A stretch of DNA of 34,958 nt, taken from NCBI GenBank assembly GCA_964369335.1, contig CAYJFR010000002.1:1-34958 (forward strand), read 5' to 3'. The notes beneath the pieces are model-generated. The model ran no database searches and was not told where the DNA came from. It worked only from the letters and a program-made list of their open reading frames with translations. The number at the start of each line of letters is the position of its first letter. Positions within the stretch are counted from its first letter, which is position 1. The stretch comes from an uncultured Desulfovibrionaceae bacterium (GTDB lineage Bacteria; Desulfobacterota; Desulfovibrionia; Desulfovibrionales; Desulfovibrionaceae). Below, piece after piece: positions 2 to 12,135 of this stretch. Position numbers and translations under genes: made by a program.

Positions 2-3000
2 CTCACCCAAAAAACTCTTGAGGAAGGGCTTGCGCTTATACGTCAGCAAAAAAGTTTGGCAGAACAGCAAAGACGCGACGCTGAACGTCAGCTTGGTGTG
101 TGGAAGCAGTGGGATGAGTGGCGCAAGGTAGAAAATCAGCTTTCGCGTTTAGCTCCTGTGGCAGAATCTTTTCCCGAAGACGGCGCAGGACGTATGGAAA
201 GAGCACAGCTTTTGTGCCAAGAAGCCGCTCGCCGCATGAACACACAAAAAGAGCGTTGTCAAAGTTTAAAAAGCAAGCGTGATGCTCTTGTAATTGACAC
301 AGAGCTGTTAGAAAAAAGACATGCCTTACAAGCTTTGAGCGAGCAAAAAAGCTCTTTTCGCCAAGCACAAGAAGGCCTTGCACCCCAAGAAGCCAGCATT
401 CACAGAATGCAAGGGCAATTAACACACACATTAGCAGAATTGGGGCCTCACTGGACATGTGAGCGCATTCACGCCACCAACCGTTCCTTGGTGGCTCGCA
501 GTGAATTGGAGCGTCTTGCTTCGGATATTCAAGCTACAGAGCAAGCCCATGTGGCAGGCTCTACCAATTTGGAAAAAGCTAATGCTTCCGTTTTGTCAGC
601 GCGTCATACTTTAGAATTGGCACAAAATACCTTGGCTCATTTGGCTGTACCTAAGGCATTGGTCAATGACGAAACACGTCAGCAAATGCGTCGCTATGTG
701 GCACATATTGAAAACAGCACCACGTCCCTAGCAGAAAAAGAGCAAGCTCTTATAACCTTCAAAAAAACTTTTCAGCGTACTTTAGCGCCACTTTCTTTAC
801 GCGCACACAGCACAAAGCCGCAAAGTGTCAAAGACATTTTGCCCAAGCTGGAAGCCTTACGCGATGCCCAAGAAGGGGCTTTAGCATGGGCAACACAAGC
901 TCAAGAAGCGCGTAAAAATACCCATGATGTAGAACTCTTAGTAACACAGGTGCAAGAAACAGAAGAAAGCGCGCGCGCCCGTATGGAGCGTATGCGTATG
1001 CATTTACAGAAAAATGTCACCACCTCACGCGCACATATTGACACACGCGCCAAAGCCATACGCGCCTTACGACAATTACATGTGAACTACGCTTTAGAAA
1101 AAGAACGTCTCAAGGAATTAACGCAACGCATGGCATTAAGCACACCGCCAGAGCCTGTAAAAAGTGTGGCGCTTATGGTCATTGGCGCTCTTATTGTGGC
1201 TTTTGGCTTAATAGGCTTATCCTTACCCATGTTTTTTGGCGTAGAAAGCCTTACCTTGACGCCTCAGCTTGTGGTGCCTTTATCTCAATGGTCTGCCTAT
1301 CTTATTGTCTTGACAGGGGCAGCTTTTCTGGCTGGAGGCTTGCCGCGTTCTGGGCCTGACCGCAAGCGTTATGCGCAAGAAATGCAAGAAATTTCCTCGC
1401 GAGCCCATGCCATAGAATTGGCGCTGACAGAAATGGAAGCCCAGATGCAAGAGCAATGTGTTTTGGCAGAGGTGAGCGACGCAGACCCCATAACTTTGGA
1501 TGCTGTGGAAATTTTGCTAGACCGTGAGCGCGAAAAATGCGCCACTGACGAGCGCATGCAATTAGACCTAGAGCAATTGGAAGCAGAATACGACGACGCT
1601 CACACAAAATTACGCATGCGCCGCCAAGAGCTTTCCGCCGCGCAACAGCAAGAGCAACGTGCTTTATTAAAATGGCACGATTGTTTACGCGCCCATGATG
1701 TGGAGAATGTGCCTTCGCACGATGCCGCCGCCGCCTTTTTTGCCCGCGTAGAAGCGGCATTGGTGGCGCAAGTTTCGGCGCAAAGCCATGAAGAAGAAGT
1801 GGCGCATTTGATACGCAGTATTGAAGAGCATAGGCAAAAATTGTGTGCTATGGAAGCTGTGGCGCATATTTTACGAGGAAATATGCCCTCAACGCCGCCA
1901 GAGTCTGCCGCATCTGACACTCAATCTTCTTTGCATCTGAATCTTGAAAGCCCTATGGAGCAAGAACATACTTCTGACACAGCGGATTCTGTTCAAGAGC
2001 CTCTTGTTTTAGCAAGTGAAACTGTGCCCATAGCGCCACAGTTCAGTGTTGCGCAAGTGTTAAGCGCTGTGCAAACGGTGCTTGATATGTGTCGCGAAGC
2101 CGACGAAGCTTTAGCAGAGCGACTCAAAGCAGAAAACGCTGTGCAGAATTGTACATATAGCCTTGAAGTTGCAGAAAAAACACAGGCTGAAATGGTACTG
2201 GCTTTACAAAAAAGCGAAAGCACCTTGCAAGAAATTTCTGATTCATGGCAACACGCCTTGCAAGATATGGGTATGGATAAGGAAATTTCCCCGCGTATGT
2301 TGCGCTCTATTTTAGAATGCATGGAAAAATGTCTTGCTATGGAGGCGAATATTTTACGCCTGCAAGAAGAAAAAGAACGTATGTTGCGCGAATGTGAAAG
2401 CCTTGTATCTCCCTTACGTGCTATTTTACTTCAAATGCAAAAGGAAGAGCCGCAAAATGTTCATAACACCGACATACCCTATCAAGAAGACTGGCTTTCT
2501 GCTTTGGACGCCTTGTTGGCACAAGTGCAAGAAAGTTATGAAGCCCAACAATTACGAGAACAAGTGCAAGGGCAGTTGCGCACGCAAATAGAGGAATTAC
2601 AAGAAGCCAATACAGCTTTACAAGACGCTAACGCCACCATTCAACACTTATTGCAATTGGGACAGATCAACAATATAGAAGAGTTTATTCGCCTTTCGCA
2701 TATACGTGGGCAAAGAATGGAGCTTTTACGCCGCAGAGATGACCTTGAAGACGCCTTGCGCTTGGCGGCAGGTGAGCAAGAGCTCAACGCCTTTTTACAA
2801 TCCTTTGCCCAACGCGAAAAGCATGAGTGTGAATTTTTCTTGCAGCAAAAAGAGGTGGAATTGCAAGAGCTACTGACGCAAGAGCAAGAAAAGATGCACG
2901 CACATGCGCAGGTCAGCGCCACATTGCACACCATTATGAATACGGACTTTTTGGCAAAATTACGCCAAGAAGAGCGCGATATTCAAGAAAGTCTACAAAG

Positions 3001-4906: not shown

Positions 4907-5704
4907 ATGACATCACTGCCTTTTGCGGCGCCTTCGTGTATTCTTCCTGCTACAGTGGCAGAAAATGCCGCTTTTTTGGCGCATAAGGTGCAAGAAATCG
5001 GTTTGTATTTTTTTGAAACCAAATCTTGTCTTGCCTATACAGAAGAAGATGTACCGCCAAGCTTACGCGCTTTGCCTGTGCATTGGCATATGCATTTGCC
5101 TGTAGATTTGGTGTGGTCGCGTCGCCAAGGGGGAGGTGCTCACGCCGCCAAGATGGCTTTAAGCGTTTTGGAAAAAGCGGCCTTTTTGCGTCCGCGCATG
5201 GCAGTACTGCATCCACCTATCTTTGAAAAAAATCTTGTGGAGCAAGAAAAACTGCTTTGGGAATTTTTACACACATGGTCGGCTAAAAGCTCAGTGCCTG
5301 TTTTATTGGAAAATATTCAAGAAGCGCCTCTATATACTCTAGATAAAGCTTTATTTTGCGATGTAAAAACACCTGAGGGCAAAACACGCCAAGGACAAAA
5401 AAAGCCGCGCTTTGGCGTTTGCCTTGATGTGGGGCATATGTTAGCCTTTGAGCAAGAAGAGTTGCTGTTACATCAAGATTTACTCCATAAGGTGCAACTT
5501 GTGCATTGGTCTGCCCCAGGTAAGCACGATGAACATTTAGCTCTGACACAGTTTACAGCTTCACAACTAGACAGCGTTCGTACATTGATTTCAGTGCTAC
5601 CGCCAAAAGTGACGCATATGATTGAAGTTTTTCATTGGCAATATTTTCAAGACTCTGTGAAAATTTTACAGCAAATGGGAGTGGGCAATGGCGACAAAAA
5701 CTAA
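4907..5704 (+). CDS. xylose-isomerase-like TIM-barrel protein (AP endonuclease 2 superfamily; possibly CbiR-like phosphodiesterase)
   Basis: 265 aa. Metal-ligand-like blocks at strand ends (HWHMHLP, LLENI, CLDVGH, HWSAPGKHDEH) resemble sugar-phosphate isomerase/epimerase-type TIM barrels. The CbiR-like idea comes from memory of family appearance only. Confidence 0.45.
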   Translation: MTSLPFAAPSCILPATVAENAAFLAHKVQEIGLYFFETKSCLAYTEEDVPPSLRALPVHWHMHLPVDLVWSRRQGGGAHAAKMALSVLEKAAFLRPRMAVLHPPIFEKNLVEQEKLLWEFLHTWSAKSSVPVLLENIQEAPLYTLDKALFCDVKTPEGKTRQGQKKPRFGVCLDVGHMLAFEQEELLLHQDLLHKVQLVHWSAPGKHDEHLALTQFTASQLDSVRTLISVLPPKVTHMIEVFHWQYFQDSVKILQQMGVGNGDKN

Positions 5705-6710
5705 ATTACAGCAACAGTTTGAGAAATGGCTGGACGCTCTTCCCAAAAATGAAAGTTGGTGTATTTTAATTACAGCAGACCCAGACGCCTTGGGGGCTGC
5801 CATGGCATTAAAGCGCATTTTATACCGTAAGGGGCGTCAAGTTGTCATTGCCAGTACCAACCAGATAACGCGCCCAGACAATCTTGCCATGTTACGGTAT
5901 TTGCGTATTCCTCTTGTGTCGTGGGAACCAGAAATGCAAGAACAATTTCAGCGCTTTGCCATTGTGGATTCACAACCACACCATCACCCCGCCTTTGAAA
6001 ATATCCCTTTTTCCCTTATTATTGACCATCATCCCATCCCCGACGATTATTGCCATATGGCAGAATATACTGATGTGCGCCCTAAGCTTGGCGCCACCTG
6101 TACCATGTTCTGCCAATATCTTAGAGATTTAGAAATAAAGCCCTCCAAACTTCTTGCTACCGCCCTACTCTATGGCATACGTGCAGACACAGGCTTATTT
6201 GAAAGAGGCGGCACTGAAGCGGATTTTCGCGCCTATCAATGGCTTTTACGCTATAGTGACACTTCTTTGTTACGGCGCATCATACGCAGTGAATATTTAC
6301 CCGAATGGCTTCCGCTTTTTGCCCACGCTTTTCGCTCTTTGCGTACTTGTAGTAAGGGAGCCCACGCTCATGTGGGGGCGGTGAAATCTCCAGACATGCT
6401 TGTTGCCATAGCGGATTTTTTCACCAAGGTATACGGATTGCGTTGGGTAGCGGTGAGCGGCACCTTTGAAAGTAAATTGATTATTATTTTCCGAGGCGAT
6501 GGCAGCACCAATATAGGCGAGGTGGCGCAGAGGCATTTTTCTTCTGTGGGTTCTGCCGGTGGACACAGAAGTATGGCAAGGGCAGAAATTCCTCTTGAGG
6601 CTTTAGAAGGGGTTAATCATGCGGATTTTGTCTTCAAAAAACTTGGTCGCAAGTGTAAAACAAAGAATTTTATTAAATCTTCCTTGGAAAAGGAACAAAG
6701 CGCCAAATGA
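5688..6710 (+). CDS. DHH-family phosphoesterase (NrnA-like, DHH + DHHA1)
   Basis: Motifs appear in order: ITADPDALGAAMAL (DxD), IVDSQPHH, LIIDHHP (DHH), and a C-terminal DHHA1-type GSAGGHRSMARAE (GGGH-like). The start overlaps the upstream gene by 17 nt. Confidence 0.8.
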   Translation: MATKTKLQQQFEKWLDALPKNESWCILITADPDALGAAMALKRILYRKGRQVVIASTNQITRPDNLAMLRYLRIPLVSWEPEMQEQFQRFAIVDSQPHHHPAFENIPFSLIIDHHPIPDDYCHMAEYTDVRPKLGATCTMFCQYLRDLEIKPSKLLATALLYGIRADTGLFERGGTEADFRAYQWLLRYSDTSLLRRIIRSEYLPEWLPLFAHAFRSLRTCSKGAHAHVGAVKSPDMLVAIADFFTKVYGLRWVAVSGTFESKLIIIFRGDGSTNIGEVAQRHFSSVGSAGGHRSMARAEIPLEALEGVNHADFVFKKLGRKCKTKNFIKSSLEKEQSAK

Positions 6711-6729
6711 AAAAAGTCACACATTCCTG

Positions 6730-6760
6730 TTGACAGTCGTAAAAAAAGAGTGCTAAGAAT
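6730..6760 (+). promoter_or_regulatory. candidate sigma70-type promoter of the aromatic amino-acid operon leader
   Basis: TTGACA (6730-6735), an 18-nt spacer, then TGcTAAGAAT (extended -10-like, 6751-6760). It lies 20 nt after the DHH gene stop and about 28 nt upstream of the leader ORF. Confidence 0.35.
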
Positions 6761-6787
6761 TGGCGTACGAAATTTATAGGAACTATT

Positions 6788-6898
6788 ATGCAAAACATGA
6801 CTTTCACCACATCTTCTTATTATAATGCAAGCCAAAGCTTTACCCAGTTTTGGTTCTTTAGCTATTTTAGAAGCGCCTGTGGTGAAGGACGTACGTAA
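6788..6898 (+). CDS. aromatic-rich leader peptide (36 aa) of an attenuator
   Basis: My translation: ATG(6788) MQNMTFTTSSYYNASQSFTQFWFFSYFRSACGEGRT TAA(6896-6898). It has 10 of 36 residues aromatic (6 F, 3 Y, 1 W), with a core FTQFWFFSYF. AGGA lies 8 nt upstream. The ORF is below the ORF-track size cut-off. An intrinsic terminator follows directly, then the aro operon. Confidence 0.5.
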   Translation: MQNMTFTTSSYYNASQSFTQFWFFSYFRSACGEGRT

Positions 6899-6921
6899 TT
6901 TCGTAAATTATAGATGTTCAG

Positions 6922-6959
6922 AGAGCCGCAGGTTATTTTTACCAGCGGCTCTTTTTTTT
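6922..6959 (+). terminator. attenuator: intrinsic terminator between leader ORF and aroA'
   Basis: AGAGCCGC (6922-6929) pairs with GCGGCTCT (6945-6952) and is followed by a run of T to 6959. It sits 61 nt upstream of the aroA' ATG, so it is a conditional terminator rather than an operon end. Confidence 0.6.
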
Positions 6960-7020
6960 AGCTCAAAGACCCGCTGAAAAGGTTCTCGCTTATTAACACA
7001 GAGCTTTTAGGAGCAGTATC

Positions 7021-7836
7021 ATGCAACTTGGAAAACAAATTCGCCTTGAACGAATCATCAACCGCCATAGCGGTCGCACCATCCTTGTTCCCATGGATCA
7101 TGGCATAACCCTTGGTCCCATTGACGGACTTGTGGATATGCGCGAAGTGGTCAACGATGTGGCAGAAGGCGGCGCCGATGCCGTACTTATGCATAAAGGG
7201 CTTATTCGTTGCTCTCATCGTAAAAGCGGCAAGGACGTAGGGCTTATTGTACATCTTTCTGCCTCTACTGTTTTAGGGCCTCATGGCAATAGAAAAACCC
7301 TTGTGGCAACTGTGGAAGAAGCTTTGTGCCACGGCGCCGATTGTGTATCTGTGCATGTGAACCTTGGCGACCCTGATGAGCGTCATATGCTAAAAGATTT
7401 TGGTATGGTAGCAGAGTCTTGCGACCGTTGGGGTATGCCCTTACTTGCCATGGTATACGCTCGCGGTCCCCAAATAACCAATGGCTACGATTCTGCCGTA
7501 GTGGCACATTGTGCACGCGTAGGTGTAGAACTTGGCGCTGATATAGTCAAAGTAGTATACACAGGTTCTGTAGAAAGTTTCATGCCTGTGGTTCAAGGTT
7601 GTTGCGTGCCTGTGGTTATTGCTGGCGGCGAAAAAATGGATTCTACCCGTGATATTTTACAAATGGCATACGATTCCGTACAAGCAGGCGGCGCAGGGCT
7701 TTCCATTGGGCGCAATGTTTTCCAACATCCTGACCGCATCAATTTAGTACGTGCTTTAGGCGCCATTGTGCATGAAAATGTCCAAGTGGAAGATGCTCTT
7801 GCTATGATGACTCAAGCACATCAAGGAGCTAAATAA
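7021..7836 (+). CDS. aroA': 2-amino-3,7-dideoxy-D-threo-hept-6-ulosonate (ADH) synthase, class I aldolase (DhnA/FbaB family)
   Basis: 271 aa. The N-terminus [27 protein letters not shown] and the later VVIAGGEK block are class-I aldolase (DhnA-type) features. The specific call comes from its position directly upstream of, and coupled to, a type II DHQ synthase gene, followed by pheA-aroA-tyrA. Confidence 0.8.
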
Positions 7837-7837
7837 C

Positions 7838-8830
7838 ATGGCGTCTGTATGGTTCAAAAGTGTCCCCATGTGCAAAGAAGATGTGACTCTTGCACTGGAA
7901 TCGGGAGTGGACGGGCTTATTGTACCCGCAGAACATGTGCAAAGCGTGGCAGGTCTTGCCCGCGGTATTGTGGTCAGCGCTGAAGAAATGCCTTCAAAGC
8001 TTTTACAAAAAAAAGAAGATGAAGAAGCTTTCGTTGCCGCAGTGCAAAAAGGCAAAAAATGGGTCTTAGCCGCTGGCTGGGAAATTATCCCCATGGAAAA
8101 TATTTTAGCGCAATGCGACTTTGTGGCGGCAGAAGCCAGAAATCTTGACGAAGCGCGTCTTGCCGCAGGAGTGCTAGAACGCGGCGTTAACACTGTCGTA
8201 CTATTACCAGAAGCTTTAGGCGACATGAAAGCCATTGTGAAAGAATTGAAGCTTTCGCAAGGCACTATGGCCTTACAAGAAGCTGTTATCACTAAGGTAC
8301 AATCCATAGGGCTTGGGCATCGCGTATGTGTGGACACCTTATCTCTTTTGCAAAAAGGTCAAGGCATGCTTGTGGGTAATTCCAGCGCTTTCAGCTTTCT
8401 TGTGCATGGGGAAACGGAGCACAATGAATATGTGGCGGCGCGTCCTTTTCGCGTTAATGCCGGTGCTGTGCATGCCTATGCGCAATTACCGCAGGATAAA
8501 ACAACCTATCTTGGCGAGTTACGCGCCGGAGAAAATGTGCTTATAGTGCATGCCAACGGCAATACCTCGCTGGCGGCTGTGGGGCGTGTGAAAATAGAAG
8601 TGCGTCCCATGTTGCTTATTGAGGCTAAAATCCCCGCCCCTCAAGGCAGTACGGAAGATATTGTAGGCACGGTATTTTTACAAAATGCGGAAACCATACG
8701 CTTGACCAAGCCTGGCGGCGAGCCTGTGAGTGTGGTCAATCTCAAGCCAGGTGATGTGGTGTTGTGTCATACAGATATAGCAGGGCGTCACTTTGGTATG
8801 CGTATTGCTGAAGAAATCCAAGAGGTGTAA
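7838..8830 (+). CDS. aroB': 3-dehydroquinate synthase II (archaeal type)
   Basis: 330 aa. The N-terminus VWFKSVP..EDVTLALESGVDGLIVP and overall length match my recollection of archaeal-type DHQ synthase II, and there are no AroB (NAD/Zn) motifs. The ATG lies 1 nt after the aroA' stop. Confidence 0.8.
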   Translation: MASVWFKSVPMCKEDVTLALESGVDGLIVPAEHVQSVAGLARGIVVSAEEMPSKLLQKKEDEEAFVAAVQKGKKWVLAAGWEIIPMENILAQCDFVAAEARNLDEARLAAGVLERGVNTVVLLPEALGDMKAIVKELKLSQGTMALQEAVITKVQSIGLGHRVCVDTLSLLQKGQGMLVGNSSAFSFLVHGETEHNEYVAARPFRVNAGAVHAYAQLPQDKTTYLGELRAGENVLIVHANGNTSLAAVGRVKIEVRPMLLIEAKIPAPQGSTEDIVGTVFLQNAETIRLTKPGGEPVSVVNLKPGDVVLCHTDIAGRHFGMRIAEEIQEV

Positions 8831-8835
8831 GTGTT

Positions 8836-10059
8836 ATGAGTGAAAAAACGACAACACAGCGTCTTATGGATGTACGACAAGAAATCGATGCCGTAGACCA
8901 AGAGCTTTTGCACATGCTCAATAAGCGCGCCATGCTGAGTTTAGAAGTGGGACGCATTAAAGCCGCCGAAAATGGAACCAATCCTCGTGTTCTTGGCGGT
9001 GCTATTTTTAAACCAGAGCGTGAGCACCAAGTGCTTGCCAATCTTGAAGCAGGCAATACAGGTCCTTTACCGCACGCCCATGTGCGCACCATTTGGCGCG
9101 AGATTTTTTCTTCTTCACGGGCTTTGCAAAAGCCGCAAAAAGTGGCCTACCTTGGACCAGAAGGGACATTTTCTTATTTTGCCGGTGTGGAATACTTGGG
9201 AAAAAGCGTGGATATGTGCCCTTTTTCCAACTTTCACGACTTATTCCGCGCTGTGTATGACGGGCGGTGCCAGCTGGGAGTAGTTCCTTTAGAAAATTCT
9301 TTAGAGGGCACTGTGGGGCAATGCTTTGACCTCTTTTATAATTTTTCTGTGTCCATCCAAGCAGAATTACTTTTGCATATCAGCCATTCCTTGCTCAGTC
9401 ATGGTAAATCTTTGAATGATATTACCCATGTATATTCACATCCGCAGGCTTTGGCACAGTGTGATGTGTGGTTGCGCGCCCATGTGCCGTGGGCGGAATT
9501 AGTACCGGCAGAATCCACCGCCGCCGCCGCAAGACGCGCTGCGGAAAATCCCCAATACGCTGCCATAGGTAATATTACTTTGGCAGATTTACACTCCTTC
9601 ACTGTGCTTGCCTCTTCCATAGAGTCCAGTGTGGATAATTGGACGCGCTTTGTTATCATTGCACCGCAAGAAGAAAAAGGCTTGGCGGCGCCTAAACCTC
9701 TGACGGAAGAAACACAAGACTCTCCAAGAGAAGGCGTGAGCTTGCCTAAGAAAACCTCATTGCTTTTCACGCTCATTGATAAGCCTGGTTCTTTATCCAC
9801 TGTGCTCTCAGCCTTTGCCCAATACGGGGTGAATATGCGCAAGTTAGAATCGCGTCCTTTGCGCCTTTCTAGCGGCGAGTGCTGGCGTTATGTGTTTTTT
9901 GCGGATTTGGAGTGTGATTTGCTAGAAACTCAGTATGCCATATTGGTGCATGAAATTCAAAGTATGTGCAATTCATTCCGTATACTTGGGGCATATCCTT
10001 CGGCAGTGCCTCATGTGACCAATGTGACCCAAAAAGAAGAGGGAGAAACTTCATGTTAA
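8836..10059 (+). CDS. pheA: bifunctional chorismate mutase / prephenate dehydratase (P-protein)
   Basis: CM domain RQEIDAVDQELLHMLNKRAMLSLEVGRIK. PDT domain VAYLGPEGTFSY ... VPLENSLEGTV. ACT domain TSLLFTLIDKPGSLSTVLSAFAQYGVNMRKLESRP. Confidence 0.9.
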   Translation: MSEKTTTQRLMDVRQEIDAVDQELLHMLNKRAMLSLEVGRIKAAENGTNPRVLGGAIFKPEREHQVLANLEAGNTGPLPHAHVRTIWREIFSSSRALQKPQKVAYLGPEGTFSYFAGVEYLGKSVDMCPFSNFHDLFRAVYDGRCQLGVVPLENSLEGTVGQCFDLFYNFSVSIQAELLLHISHSLLSHGKSLNDITHVYSHPQALAQCDVWLRAHVPWAELVPAESTAAAARRAAENPQYAAIGNITLADLHSFTVLASSIESSVDNWTRFVIIAPQEEKGLAAPKPLTEETQDSPREGVSLPKKTSLLFTLIDKPGSLSTVLSAFAQYGVNMRKLESRPLRLSSGECWRYVFFADLECDLLETQYAILVHEIQSMCNSFRILGAYPSAVPHVTNVTQKEEGETSC

Positions 10060-11396
10060 CGGTACAAGCTTCTGCATCAAAATCCATTTCGCACAGAACC
10101 CTTATGGGCGCCGCCCTCACACAAGGCGTTTCCACTGTGCATAATGTGCTTATGAGCCGTGATATTCAGTGTACTATGGCAGTACTCACCTCTGCTGGAG
10201 CGCAATTTGAGCCTTTGGAAGACGCACAACAAACAGCAGGCACAGGGGCTTTTGTAGTCACAGGCATGGGCGCGTGTGCCAATTCTGCTCATTATGAACA
10301 AGACGCCATTTCTTGCGACATGCACGAATCAGGTACATCATGCCGTCTGCTTACAGGTATTTTAAGTACGTGTGCTGGACGCTTTCGTATTCATGGCGCG
10401 CCGCGTATGCATGAGCGTCCCATACAAGCCTTGACCCAAGCTTTAACTCAATTGGGCGTTTCCATCACCTTTGAAGACAAGGCTGGCTATCCCCCCCTTA
10501 TTTTAGAAGGAGGCGACTTTCAACAAGATCATATTACCATGGACAGTGACGCTTCTAGTCAATACCTTTCTGGCTTGCTTTTGGCGGCGCCGCGCTCTTC
10601 TCGTGGGCTTGTTATCACCCTTGGAGGCAAAAAAGTTGTTTCTTGGCCATATGTAGGCTTAACTTTACAAACCCTTGAAGATTTTAATATTTCTTTCCAT
10701 GTGGAAGTAAAAGAAGGGCAAGCTTGGAAAAAAGTAGACTGGCGTTTGCTTACAGAAGCTGTCCCACATGCCACGCGTTTTTGTATTGAGCCTAGTCAGT
10801 ATGCTGTGGGTGATTACATAGTAGAAGGAGATTGGTCGGGCGCGTCTTATCTTGTAGCCGCAGGTGCTTTGGGAAAAAATGCGGTGTGCGTGCAGGGCTT
10901 GCGCCAAGATTCCTTGCAAGGGGATAAGGCTATCATGGATATTTTACAGCGTATGGGCGGCGTTTTTGCATGGCAAGAGCAAGGTCTGTGCGTGCAGCCT
11001 TCTGCTTTGCAGGGTATTGAGGTAGATATGGGCTATTGCCCTGACCTTGTGCCTACGGTGGCTGTTATGGCAGCCTTTGCCAAGGGTGTCACCACCATAA
11101 CCAATTGTGCGCATTTACGCATTAAAGAATCAGACCGCATTGCGGCGCCAGCGGCAGAATTGCGTAAATTGGGCGTGCAAGTGGAAGAATTGGACGACGG
11201 TTTACGTATTCACGGTTTGGGACAAGTACCCACCATTGACCCTGCATGTGTGTTTAGCACTCATAATGACCATCGTATGGCCATGAGCTTGGCATTATTG
11301 TCTTTGCATGGGCAAAAAATACAACTTGACGATGCTAAGGTTGTGGAAAAGTCCTTTCCGCATTTTTGGCATGTCTGGAGTCAATTAGATGCCTAA
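10053..11396 (+). CDS. aroA: 3-phosphoshikimate 1-carboxyvinyltransferase (EPSP synthase)
   Basis: The preferred start is ATG 10053 (MLTVQASASKSISHR...), which overlaps the pheA stop in ATGTTAA. The ORF-track start at 9966 lies 90 nt inside pheA. Motifs: ASKSISHR, ESGTSCRLL, KESDRI, HNDHRMAMSLALL. Confidence 0.9.
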   Translation: MLTVQASASKSISHRTLMGAALTQGVSTVHNVLMSRDIQCTMAVLTSAGAQFEPLEDAQQTAGTGAFVVTGMGACANSAHYEQDAISCDMHESGTSCRLLTGILSTCAGRFRIHGAPRMHERPIQALTQALTQLGVSITFEDKAGYPPLILEGGDFQQDHITMDSDASSQYLSGLLLAAPRSSRGLVITLGGKKVVSWPYVGLTLQTLEDFNISFHVEVKEGQAWKKVDWRLLTEAVPHATRFCIEPSQYAVGDYIVEGDWSGASYLVAAGALGKNAVCVQGLRQDSLQGDKAIMDILQRMGGVFAWQEQGLCVQPSALQGIEVDMGYCPDLVPTVAVMAAFAKGVTTITNCAHLRIKESDRIAAPAAELRKLGVQVEELDDGLRIHGLGQVPTIDPACVFSTHNDHRMAMSLALLSLHGQKIQLDDAKVVEKSFPHFWHVWSQLDA

Positions 11397-12135
11397 AAAT
11401 ATTGTCATTGTGGGAAGTAAGGGACGCATGGGAGCATACTTTTTGCGCCGCTTGAAAAAGCTTGACTATACAGTAAGCGGCATTGATATGCCCCTTACTG
11501 AGGATGTGTTTCGCACAGCCTGTGCCAAGGCGCATATGGTTTTGCTTTGCATCCCCGCGCACGCCATGCAAAACGTGCTTGAAAAAATGACACCTCATAT
11601 GCCCAAGCACTGCGTTTTAGCCGATATAACGTCGGTTAAAGTGCAGGCTTTGGCATGTATGAAAAAATATTGGTCTGGTGCCGTTGTGGGCACACATCCG
11701 CTTTTTGGCAATAAGCCACAACGCGGGCATGATTTGCCTGTAACCATTGTTCCTGCAGAAAATACCGCTGAAGAGCCTGTTCTTTTTGTGGAAAAGCTCT
11801 TTACGGATTTAGGCTGTCGTGTGTTTCGAGCCAGCGCTGAACAACATGATAAAGCCATGGCTGCCATTCAAAACTTGAATTTTATTACTTCATTGGCATA
11901 TTTTGCTGCGCTGTCTCAAGATGAAGAATTGCTTCCCTTTTTGACGCCTTCTTTTAAACGTCGTCAAGATGCGGCGCATAAACTTCTTACGGAAGACGCC
12001 GAGCTTTTTGCCGGCTTATATGAAGCCAATCCTTACAGTCAGCAACTTGTGCGTAAATACGGAACCATGCTTAATATAGCCGCTGCGGGGGATATTGACT
12101 TGCTTGTTAACAAAGCCGCTTGGTGGTGGGAATAG
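11389..12135 (+). CDS. tyrA: prephenate dehydrogenase
   Basis: Rossmann N-terminus IVIVGSKGRMGAYF and the conserved VVGTHPLFG block. 248 aa. The start overlaps the aroA stop by 8 nt. Confidence 0.8.
   Translation: MPKNIVIVGSKGRMGAYFLRRLKKLDYTVSGIDMPLTEDVFRTACAKAHMVLLCIPAHAMQNVLEKMTPHMPKHCVLADITSVKVQALACMKKYWSGAVVGTHPLFGNKPQRGHDLPVTIVPAENTAEEPVLFVEKLFTDLGCRVFRASAEQHDKAMAAIQNLNFITSLAYFAALSQDEELLPFLTPSFKRRQDAAHKLLTEDAELFAGLYEANPYSQQLVRKYGTMLNIAAAGDIDLLVNKAAWWWE

Follow-up and report, generated by a model that had tools for sequence, protein, structure and literature searches.

A putative leader-peptide transcription attenuator ahead of the aroA'-aroB'-pheA-aroA-tyrA operon of an uncultured Desulfovibrionaceae bacterium

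We analysed a stretch of 34,958 nucleotides (nt), referred to here as the window (contig CAYJFR010000002.1 of assembly GCA_964369335.1, forward strand), from a genus of uncultured Desulfovibrionaceae with a low GC content (43%). The best DNA match with a name shows about 67% identity. The window carries five genes of aromatic amino acid biosynthesis, aroA', aroB', pheA, aroA and tyrA, which by their Pfam assignments yield chorismate and the precursors of phenylalanine (Phe) and tyrosine (Tyr). They were taken as one operon that ends at tyrA, because a gene for an outer-membrane barrel comes next. Between the end of a DHH/DHHA1-family gene at 6710 and the start of aroA' at 7021 there is a gap of 310 nt. 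This gap contains a promoter, a short open reading frame (ORF) rich in aromatic codons, and an intrinsic terminator. As judged from alignment of relatives and RNA folding, these very probably form a ribosome-mediated (leader-peptide) transcription attenuator of the operon.

An initial annotation of the window had given the length of the gap correctly and had placed in it a TTGACA/TGcTAAGAAT pair, a 36-codon ORF with ten aromatic codons, and a GC-rich stem followed by a T tract. All of these are present, and the promoter pair is conserved in position (Table 1). In the alignment of relatives, TTGACA lies about 55–65 nt 5' of the leader ATG across the genus, with the TG-n-TA element 18 nt downstream; the transcript is predicted to start near 6766. 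A generic promoter and terminator scanner listed neither the leader promoter, because its −10 element is weak, nor the terminator, because of an internal A/A mismatch; alignment and folding served to establish the two. Purine-rich sequences resembling a Shine-Dalgarno (SD) element precede most of the orthologous leader ORFs. Of the 272 ORFs of 20–60 codons that start with ATG on either strand of the window, the leader ORF is the sole one to reach seven aromatic codons in ten. The initial annotation had this count right and the place wrong: the interval that it gave, 6845–6874, holds six, and the run of seven occupies 6839–6868. When the leader peptide was compared with the Pfam and NCBIfam profiles, no family was matched at E values up to 10. 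In two loci from other families of the order (L025 and L028), TTGACA was found just about 30 nt 5' of the leader ATG, and the leader-peptide mRNA of such loci may be leaderless or nearly so.

The leader RNA folds far more stably than shuffled sequences (z = −5.66, 0/200 shuffles). Four segments can be recognized in it. In the 1:2 helix, 6801–6811 pair with 6878–6888 (11 bp) and 6813–6817 with 6869–6873 (5 bp), in a domain of −28.8 kcal/mol; the 1:2 duplex itself reaches −16.7 kcal/mol, compared with −8.4 kcal/mol for shuffles (z = −3.9). In the 2:3 helix, the antiterminator, 6875–6883 pair with 6925–6933; its domain (−23.2 kcal/mol) encloses the middle hairpin. The pairing of 6876–6883 with 6925–6932 proposed in the initial annotation was recovered exactly, and one G-U pair (6875/6933) was added to it. 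The 3:4 helix is the terminator (−20.6 kcal/mol), in which 6920–6933 pair with 6941–6954 except for an A/A mismatch at 6930/6944, followed by T8. The mismatched A6930 is the exact partner of U6878 in the antiterminator. In folds of the whole leader, −57.0 kcal/mol was obtained with 1:2 and 3:4 formed and −40.1 kcal/mol with the antiterminator forced; the default would therefore be termination (off).

Table 1. Positions of the features of the attenuator and of the genes around it in the window.
Feature	Position	Strand	Basis or remark
DHH/DHHA1-family gene	5688-6710	+	Pfam
−35 hexamer TTGACA	6730-6735	+	Sequence; equivalent position kept in nearly all related loci
Extended −10 TGcTAAGAAT (TG-n-TAAGAAT), 18 nt after −35	6751-6760	+	Sequence; TG-n-TA kept in closest relatives
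Leader SD AGGA, 6 nt 5' of ATG	6778-6781	+	Sequence
Leader-peptide ORF, 36 codons + TAA; 6 Phe, 3 Tyr and 1 tryptophan (Trp) codons	6788-6898	+	Orthologous ORF in 29/30 loci
Segment 1 (anti-antiterminator strand), codons 5-10	6801-6817	+	Pairs with 6869-6888; local fold
Inner hairpin within 1:2 domain, overlaps early aromatic run	6830-6855	+	−10.4 kcal/mol; present in genus-level folds
Regulatory codon run F18-F27, 7 aromatic codons per 10	6839-6868	+	Sequence; conservation
Segment 2, codons Ala30-Cys31-Gly32-Glu33; alternative partner of segment 1 or 3	6875-6886	+	Nearly invariant across the order
Middle hairpin enclosed by antiterminator; holds leader stop codon (6896-6898)	6887-6919	+	−8.1 kcal/mol
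Segment 3, terminator 5' arm and antiterminator 3' strand (core 6925-6932)	6920-6933	+	Folding, covariation
Segment 4, terminator 3' arm	6941-6954	+	Folding, covariation
T8 tract of intrinsic terminator	6952-6959	+	Sequence; T-run 3' of hairpin in all 29 aligned loci
aroA' SD AGGAG	7009-7013	+	Sequence
aroA', DeoC-type aldolase	7021-7836	+	Pfam
aroB', 3-dehydroquinate synthase II	7838-8830	+	Pfam
pheA, chorismate mutase-prephenate dehydratase-ACT	8836-10059	+	Pfam
aroA, EPSP synthase	9966-11396	+	Pfam
tyrA, prephenate dehydrogenase	11389-12135	+	Pfam
Five-gene operon aroA'-aroB'-pheA-aroA-tyrA, predicted target of the attenuator	7021-12135	+	Pfam; relatives keep gene order behind attenuator

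Orthologous loci were collected independently of any motif, by a search with the aroA' protein; 41 related genomes gave 30 loci, six of them from other families of the order. At 29 of the 30 an ORF of 25–41 codons, with 6–10 aromatic codons per ten, ends about 120 nt (range about 90–170 nt) before aroA', with a GC-rich hairpin and then a T-run behind it; at the thirtieth, a contig end truncates the sequence 171 nt upstream of aroA'. The aromatic run is kept in all orthologous leaders and always includes codons for Phe and for Tyr. Relatives differ in the upstream neighbour, which in L003 is a cyclophilin-like ORF, and the leader therefore belongs to, and travels with, aroA'. Both alternative stems are kept along with the run at these 29 loci, and compensatory changes were found in each. 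In the 29-sequence alignment A2, from which all covariation counts were taken, 91% of the terminator cells are paired, changes on both sides occur at 7/13 pairs, and none of 500 shuffles reached the observed values; the pairing collapses in controls with slid partners. The antiterminator core is 99.2% paired. In place of its U-A pair 6878/6930, two loci have A-U, one has C-G and one G-U; the pair 6875/6933 is G-C in 12 loci, G-U in 10 and A-U in 7. The outer helix of the middle hairpin is 85% paired, again with compensatory changes. On this comparative evidence we take the 2:3 and 3:4 helices as established.

The effect of a ribosome was modelled by folding the window RNA between 6766 and 6938, a stretch that ends short of segment 4, and keeping 30 nt single-stranded as the footprint at each A-site codon. 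In the absence of a ribosome, the probability of the 1:2 helix, P(1:2), was 0.81 and that of the antiterminator, P(2:3), was 0.17. With the A site at codons 2–17, which include F6, Y11 and Y12, P(1:2) was ≤0.05 and P(2:3) ≥0.94. The values were 0.22 and 0.77 at F18, and 0.01 and 0.98 at F24–S25. From Y26 to T36 P(2:3) was 0.00, and with the A site at the stop codon P(1:2) was 0.00 and P(2:3) 0.08. The switch expected for ribosome-covered codons was thus obtained; overall, the model predicts the textbook three-state behaviour, in which no translation or complete translation terminates, and a stall at the run or at one of the aromatic codons before it reads through. A cruder scan across all relatives, which overstates the antiterminator since it scored segment 3 paired to anything (for the window, specific pairs were scored), gave the same drop when the A site reached the end of the run. 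The leader stop codon lies a constant 25–34 nt 5' of segment 3 across the relatives. Masked folding of the full-length leader at equilibrium was also tried. It was uninformative, as the terminator wins at equilibrium, and was replaced by the RNA cut after segment 3.

The mechanism proposed is as follows. Transcription would begin near 6766 from the sigma-70-type promoter at 6730–6760. In the absence of translation, segment 1 would pair with 2 and segment 3 with 4, and termination near 6959 would leave an RNA of about 190 nt. When the aromatic tRNAs are fully charged, the ribosome would pass the run and occupy segment 2 and the stop codon, so that 3:4 would form and transcription would again terminate. 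When Phe-, Tyr- or Trp-tRNA is scarce, the ribosome would stall at F6, at Y11–Y12 or at F18–F24; segment 1 and the helper helices would be opened, and segment 2 would be left free. Free segment 2 would pair with segment 3 as the latter emerges, the terminator would be blocked, and the operon would be transcribed. In this scheme, where transcription starts, how ribosome and polymerase are timed to each other, and how the element responds to the supply of amino acids are what we infer.

Several results weigh against attenuation of this kind, or against parts of it. The 1:2 helix, which we take as likely, is the weakest part: its core is 82% paired, yet in alignment A2 its covariation is not above that of shuffles, and the duplex beats 95% of shuffles in just 12 of the 29 loci. 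Single-sequence folds place the partner of segment 2 at codons 5–9 in most loci, and complementarity is retained in variants: L012 and L014, for instance, have CCCC opposite GGGG. The helix cores are almost invariant throughout, and much of the evidence for pairing is conservation, not covariation. In the ribosome-mask scan, P(1:2) rose to 0.62–0.72 and P(2:3) was just 0.27–0.37 with the A site at Q20–W22; this dip arises because the folding model allows 1:2 to close around the ribosome, which is physically doubtful. Finally, a ribosome at Y26 or F27 would, in the same model, cover segment 2 and favour termination, and therefore not all ten aromatic codons would act in one direction.

The distribution of the element was examined with a strict core pattern (CCTGYGGT, 32–62 nt, GCCGCAGG, 5–16 nt, GCGGC) that says nothing about codons. 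It was found in 178 of 401 sampled Desulfovibrionales genomes, nearly always once per genome; a reversed-pattern control gave about 12 hits. In several families the pattern is near saturation (25/27, 30/35 and 9/9). Of the 112 instances followed by a recognisable gene, 110 lie ahead of aroA'. Genera without a strict match were checked by aroA' homology, and at 16 of 18 such loci the aromatic leader was kept. Most of these variant loci show a recognisable variant core and terminator, with CCGCGGG in segment 3 for example, and in high-GC genera the variant cores keep complementarity (CCCGYGG with CCGCGGG). The high-GC Desulfovibrionaceae genomes examined have an orthologous aromatic leader and terminator ahead of aroA'. 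Among the matches listed in a scan of named genomes were Desulfovibrio piger ATCC 29098, D. desulfuricans, D. falkowii, D. cuneatus, Mailhella, Desulfomicrobium, Desulfonatronum, Desulfonatronovibrio, Desulfonatronospira, Desulfonauticus, Desulfoplanes, Maridesulfovibrio and Pseudodesulfovibrio; those listed outside the order included Desulfobacterales-type metagenome-assembled genomes (MAGs) and one Candidatus Adiutrix MAG. Matches in Bryobacteraceae, Oscillospiraceae, Taibaiella, Ruminococcus, Acidaminobacter and Moraxellaceae lack an aromatic ORF and were rejected as chance.

The same RNA core is also found with other codons and ahead of other genes. Leaders with a run of Trp codons precede trpE in the Adiutrix locus L088 and in L075, and leaders with Tyr and Phe codons precede DAHP synthase genes in Desulfobacterales-type MAGs (L066 and L120). 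Going by the predicted genes, leader codon content tracks the function of the gene downstream. Since the search pattern is blind to codons, this match is independent support for the sensing of amino acids by translation.

Further loci with the shared core were noted. In Desulfoplanes-like genomes (L059, 1325–2473; Desulfoplanes L151, 1348–2500), a leader with WWWW or WWW lies ahead of a gene for a TRAP-type DctP solute-binding protein. The protein probably handles Trp or an indole compound, which suggests that uptake of such compounds would be under attenuation. A leader with six consecutive Tyr codons is found ahead of DAHP synthase I in a Desulfobacteraceae MAG (L154, 752–2700, minus strand), with a tyrA homologue 1.6 kb downstream. 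Phe-run leaders precede Na+/solute symporter (SSF) genes in Maridesulfovibrio (L076, 4434–6379) and Pseudodesulfovibrio (L080, 671–2541, minus strand); these symporters are probably Phe transporters.

The initial annotation had supposed that the leader senses all three aromatic aminoacyl-tRNA pools. The codons back this only in part: those for Phe and Tyr occur in every run, but the window leader has a single Trp codon, about one-third of the species of the genus have none, and trpE has an attenuator of its own. The aro leader is accordingly predicted, from its codons, to be mainly a Phe and Tyr sensor with a minor Trp input; the latter makes sense because the common pathway feeds Trp too. Presence of the leader Trp codon showed no clear relation to fusion of the trp operon behind tyrA, the codon being found in 7/7 fused and 11/12 unfused cases (19 operons).

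The trpE attenuator lies on contig C159 of the same genome (L168, 1040–1275, minus strand). Its leader has 23 codons with W-L-W-W (1181–1252, minus strand) and is followed by a strong terminator and then by AAGGAGAG-ATG of trpE. The terminator has a different core, C5-UCUGUU...AACAGA-G5, followed by U7. No Rfam match above threshold was obtained for this region.

Three other explanations of the aro element were weighed. According to the first, a trans-acting factor (an RNA-binding protein, a small RNA or a tRNA) would run the switch through the invariant core, and the ORF would be secondary or serve for coupling. The core of segments 2, 3 and 4 does barely vary across the order and beyond, before at least five gene types, and such conservation exceeds what simple pairing demands. 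Three-way pairing together with the coding constraint on segment 2 can, however, explain the slow change, and a factor-only model does not predict that an aromatic-run ORF is always present and that its codons change with the downstream gene. When 6500–7200 was searched against Rfam with cmscan at E values up to 10, there were sub-threshold chance matches alone: no T-box, PyrR, TRAP-type or riboswitch family reached threshold (the best, PyrR, scored 22.5 bits where its gathering score is 54), and no Phe, Trp, His, Leu or Thr leader family was listed. We consider control by such a factor improbable.

Still less probable is that the ORF is an independent gene for a small protein, a hydrophobic, aromatic-rich micropeptide with its own terminator and no part in operon regulation. 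It has a good SD sequence and its own promoter and terminator, and leader peptides of other attenuators are reported to act in trans (e.g., peTrpL). Outside the residues dictated by RNA pairing, however, nothing of the peptide is conserved but its aromatic composition. Over the core, moreover, the reading frame differs between lineages, the core being translated in another frame in the Maridesulfovibrio and L066 groups; the Ala-Cys-Gly motif therefore reflects a constraint on the RNA and not on the peptide. Directly 3' of the ORF, and on its strand, there is always a gene of the aromatic pathway or a transporter gene, and the antiterminator covaries. That the hairpin at 6920–6959 merely terminates the DHH-family gene, downstream of which it lies on the same strand, and that the aromatic ORF is a chance ORF of the spacer, deserves next to no credence, given the conserved promoter between the gene end and the hairpin, a leader that stays with aroA' in relatives that have a different upstream gene, and an ORF that is the most aromatic-dense of 272 and is kept in 29/30 loci.

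With ribosome-mediated attenuation as the preferred explanation, sulfate reducers that use the aroA'/aroB' entry to the shikimate pathway would control that entry by a classical ribosome-sensing attenuator. The family is large: most of the sampled Desulfovibrionales genomes have it, those of gut Desulfovibrio and Mailhella among them. Rfam, Pfam and NCBIfam lack it, and annotation pipelines therefore leave both the leader ORF and the RNA unmarked. Because codon content follows the downstream gene, sister elements would predict the function of neighbouring transporters. Of most interest beyond this is that a single RNA core is used again, with differing codon runs, ahead of several kinds of operon. 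In a bolder form, which we put forward as a speculation with rather little chance of being right, the core CCUGUGGU / GCCGCAGG / GCGGC plus U-run would be a reusable chassis in Desulfovibrionales, Desulfobacterales and Adiutrix-like bacteria, fitted with F/Y/W, Trp, Tyr or Phe codon cartridges. These would make up an aromatic regulon run by RNA alone, with uncharacterised transporters among its members, and the invariance of the core beyond pairing could reflect a trans factor adding a second signal.

Two further observations concern the operon itself. The longest ORF for EPSP synthase, starting with GTG at 9966, overlaps the pheA ORF by 94 nt; its true start is probably further downstream. 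The spacer from the terminator to the aroA' SD (6960–7008) has complementary AGCTC (6960–6964) and GAGCT (7001–7005) at its flanks and a small GC hairpin, and similar spacer sequences (GGGTCGCAAGCCCC-like) occur in many species of the genus.

Leader-peptide attenuation has been assigned mainly to gamma-proteobacteria in a review of RNA regulons (Sun 2013, PMC3766115). The aromatic leader element is without description in that survey and in Leyn 2016 (PMC5343134), Rodionov et al. 2004 (PMC545781) holds nothing on aromatic attenuators, and a literature search on DVU0460 found nothing. The initial annotation had mentioned earlier predictions of attenuators near Desulfovibrio aromatic genes, and in substance this was right: the aroA' supraoperon of D. 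vulgaris is given a putative upstream attenuator in Table 7 of a 2005 paper (PMC1173090), an entry without details that was taken from Merino's database. We infer that this entry is the element described here, as the head of the operon (aroA', aroB'), the bacterial family and the position are the same. The entry is a table line alone, without leader peptide, structure or distribution. The window differs from D. vulgaris in that its operon stops at tyrA and trpE, elsewhere in the genome, has its own attenuator.

The aroR leader of Corynebacterium glutamicum, ahead of aroF (DAHP synthase), carries a Phe-Tyr-Phe triplet and answers to Phe, not to Tyr (Neshat et al. 2014, as related in PMC11802643). 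As far as that account goes, aroR resembles the window leader in that it stalls ribosomes, mixes Phe and Tyr codons and controls entry to the common aromatic pathway. It has only the triplet, compared with ten aromatic codons including one Trp in the window, and the window leader, unlike aroR, would control the archaeal-type aroA'/aroB' entry together with the Phe and Tyr branches. The two come from different phyla and share no Rfam family in a search against all of Rfam.

The enterobacterial leaders pheL-pheA and trpL-trpEDCBA (PMC3082878; the Yanofsky model) follow the logic proposed for the window: a short ORF with cognate codons, alternative helices (2:3 and 3:4, and 1:2, which is likely in the window), and an intrinsic terminator ahead of the first structural gene. 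Each of them is specific for a single amino acid, whereas the leader in the window is mixed. Its codon run sits between segments 1 and 2, and not inside segment 1 as in pheL and trpL, and it has an inner hairpin and a middle hairpin in addition. The mechanism proposed is thus classical Yanofsky-type attenuation as in trpL and pheL, in a family that is new to Rfam, Pfam and NCBIfam.

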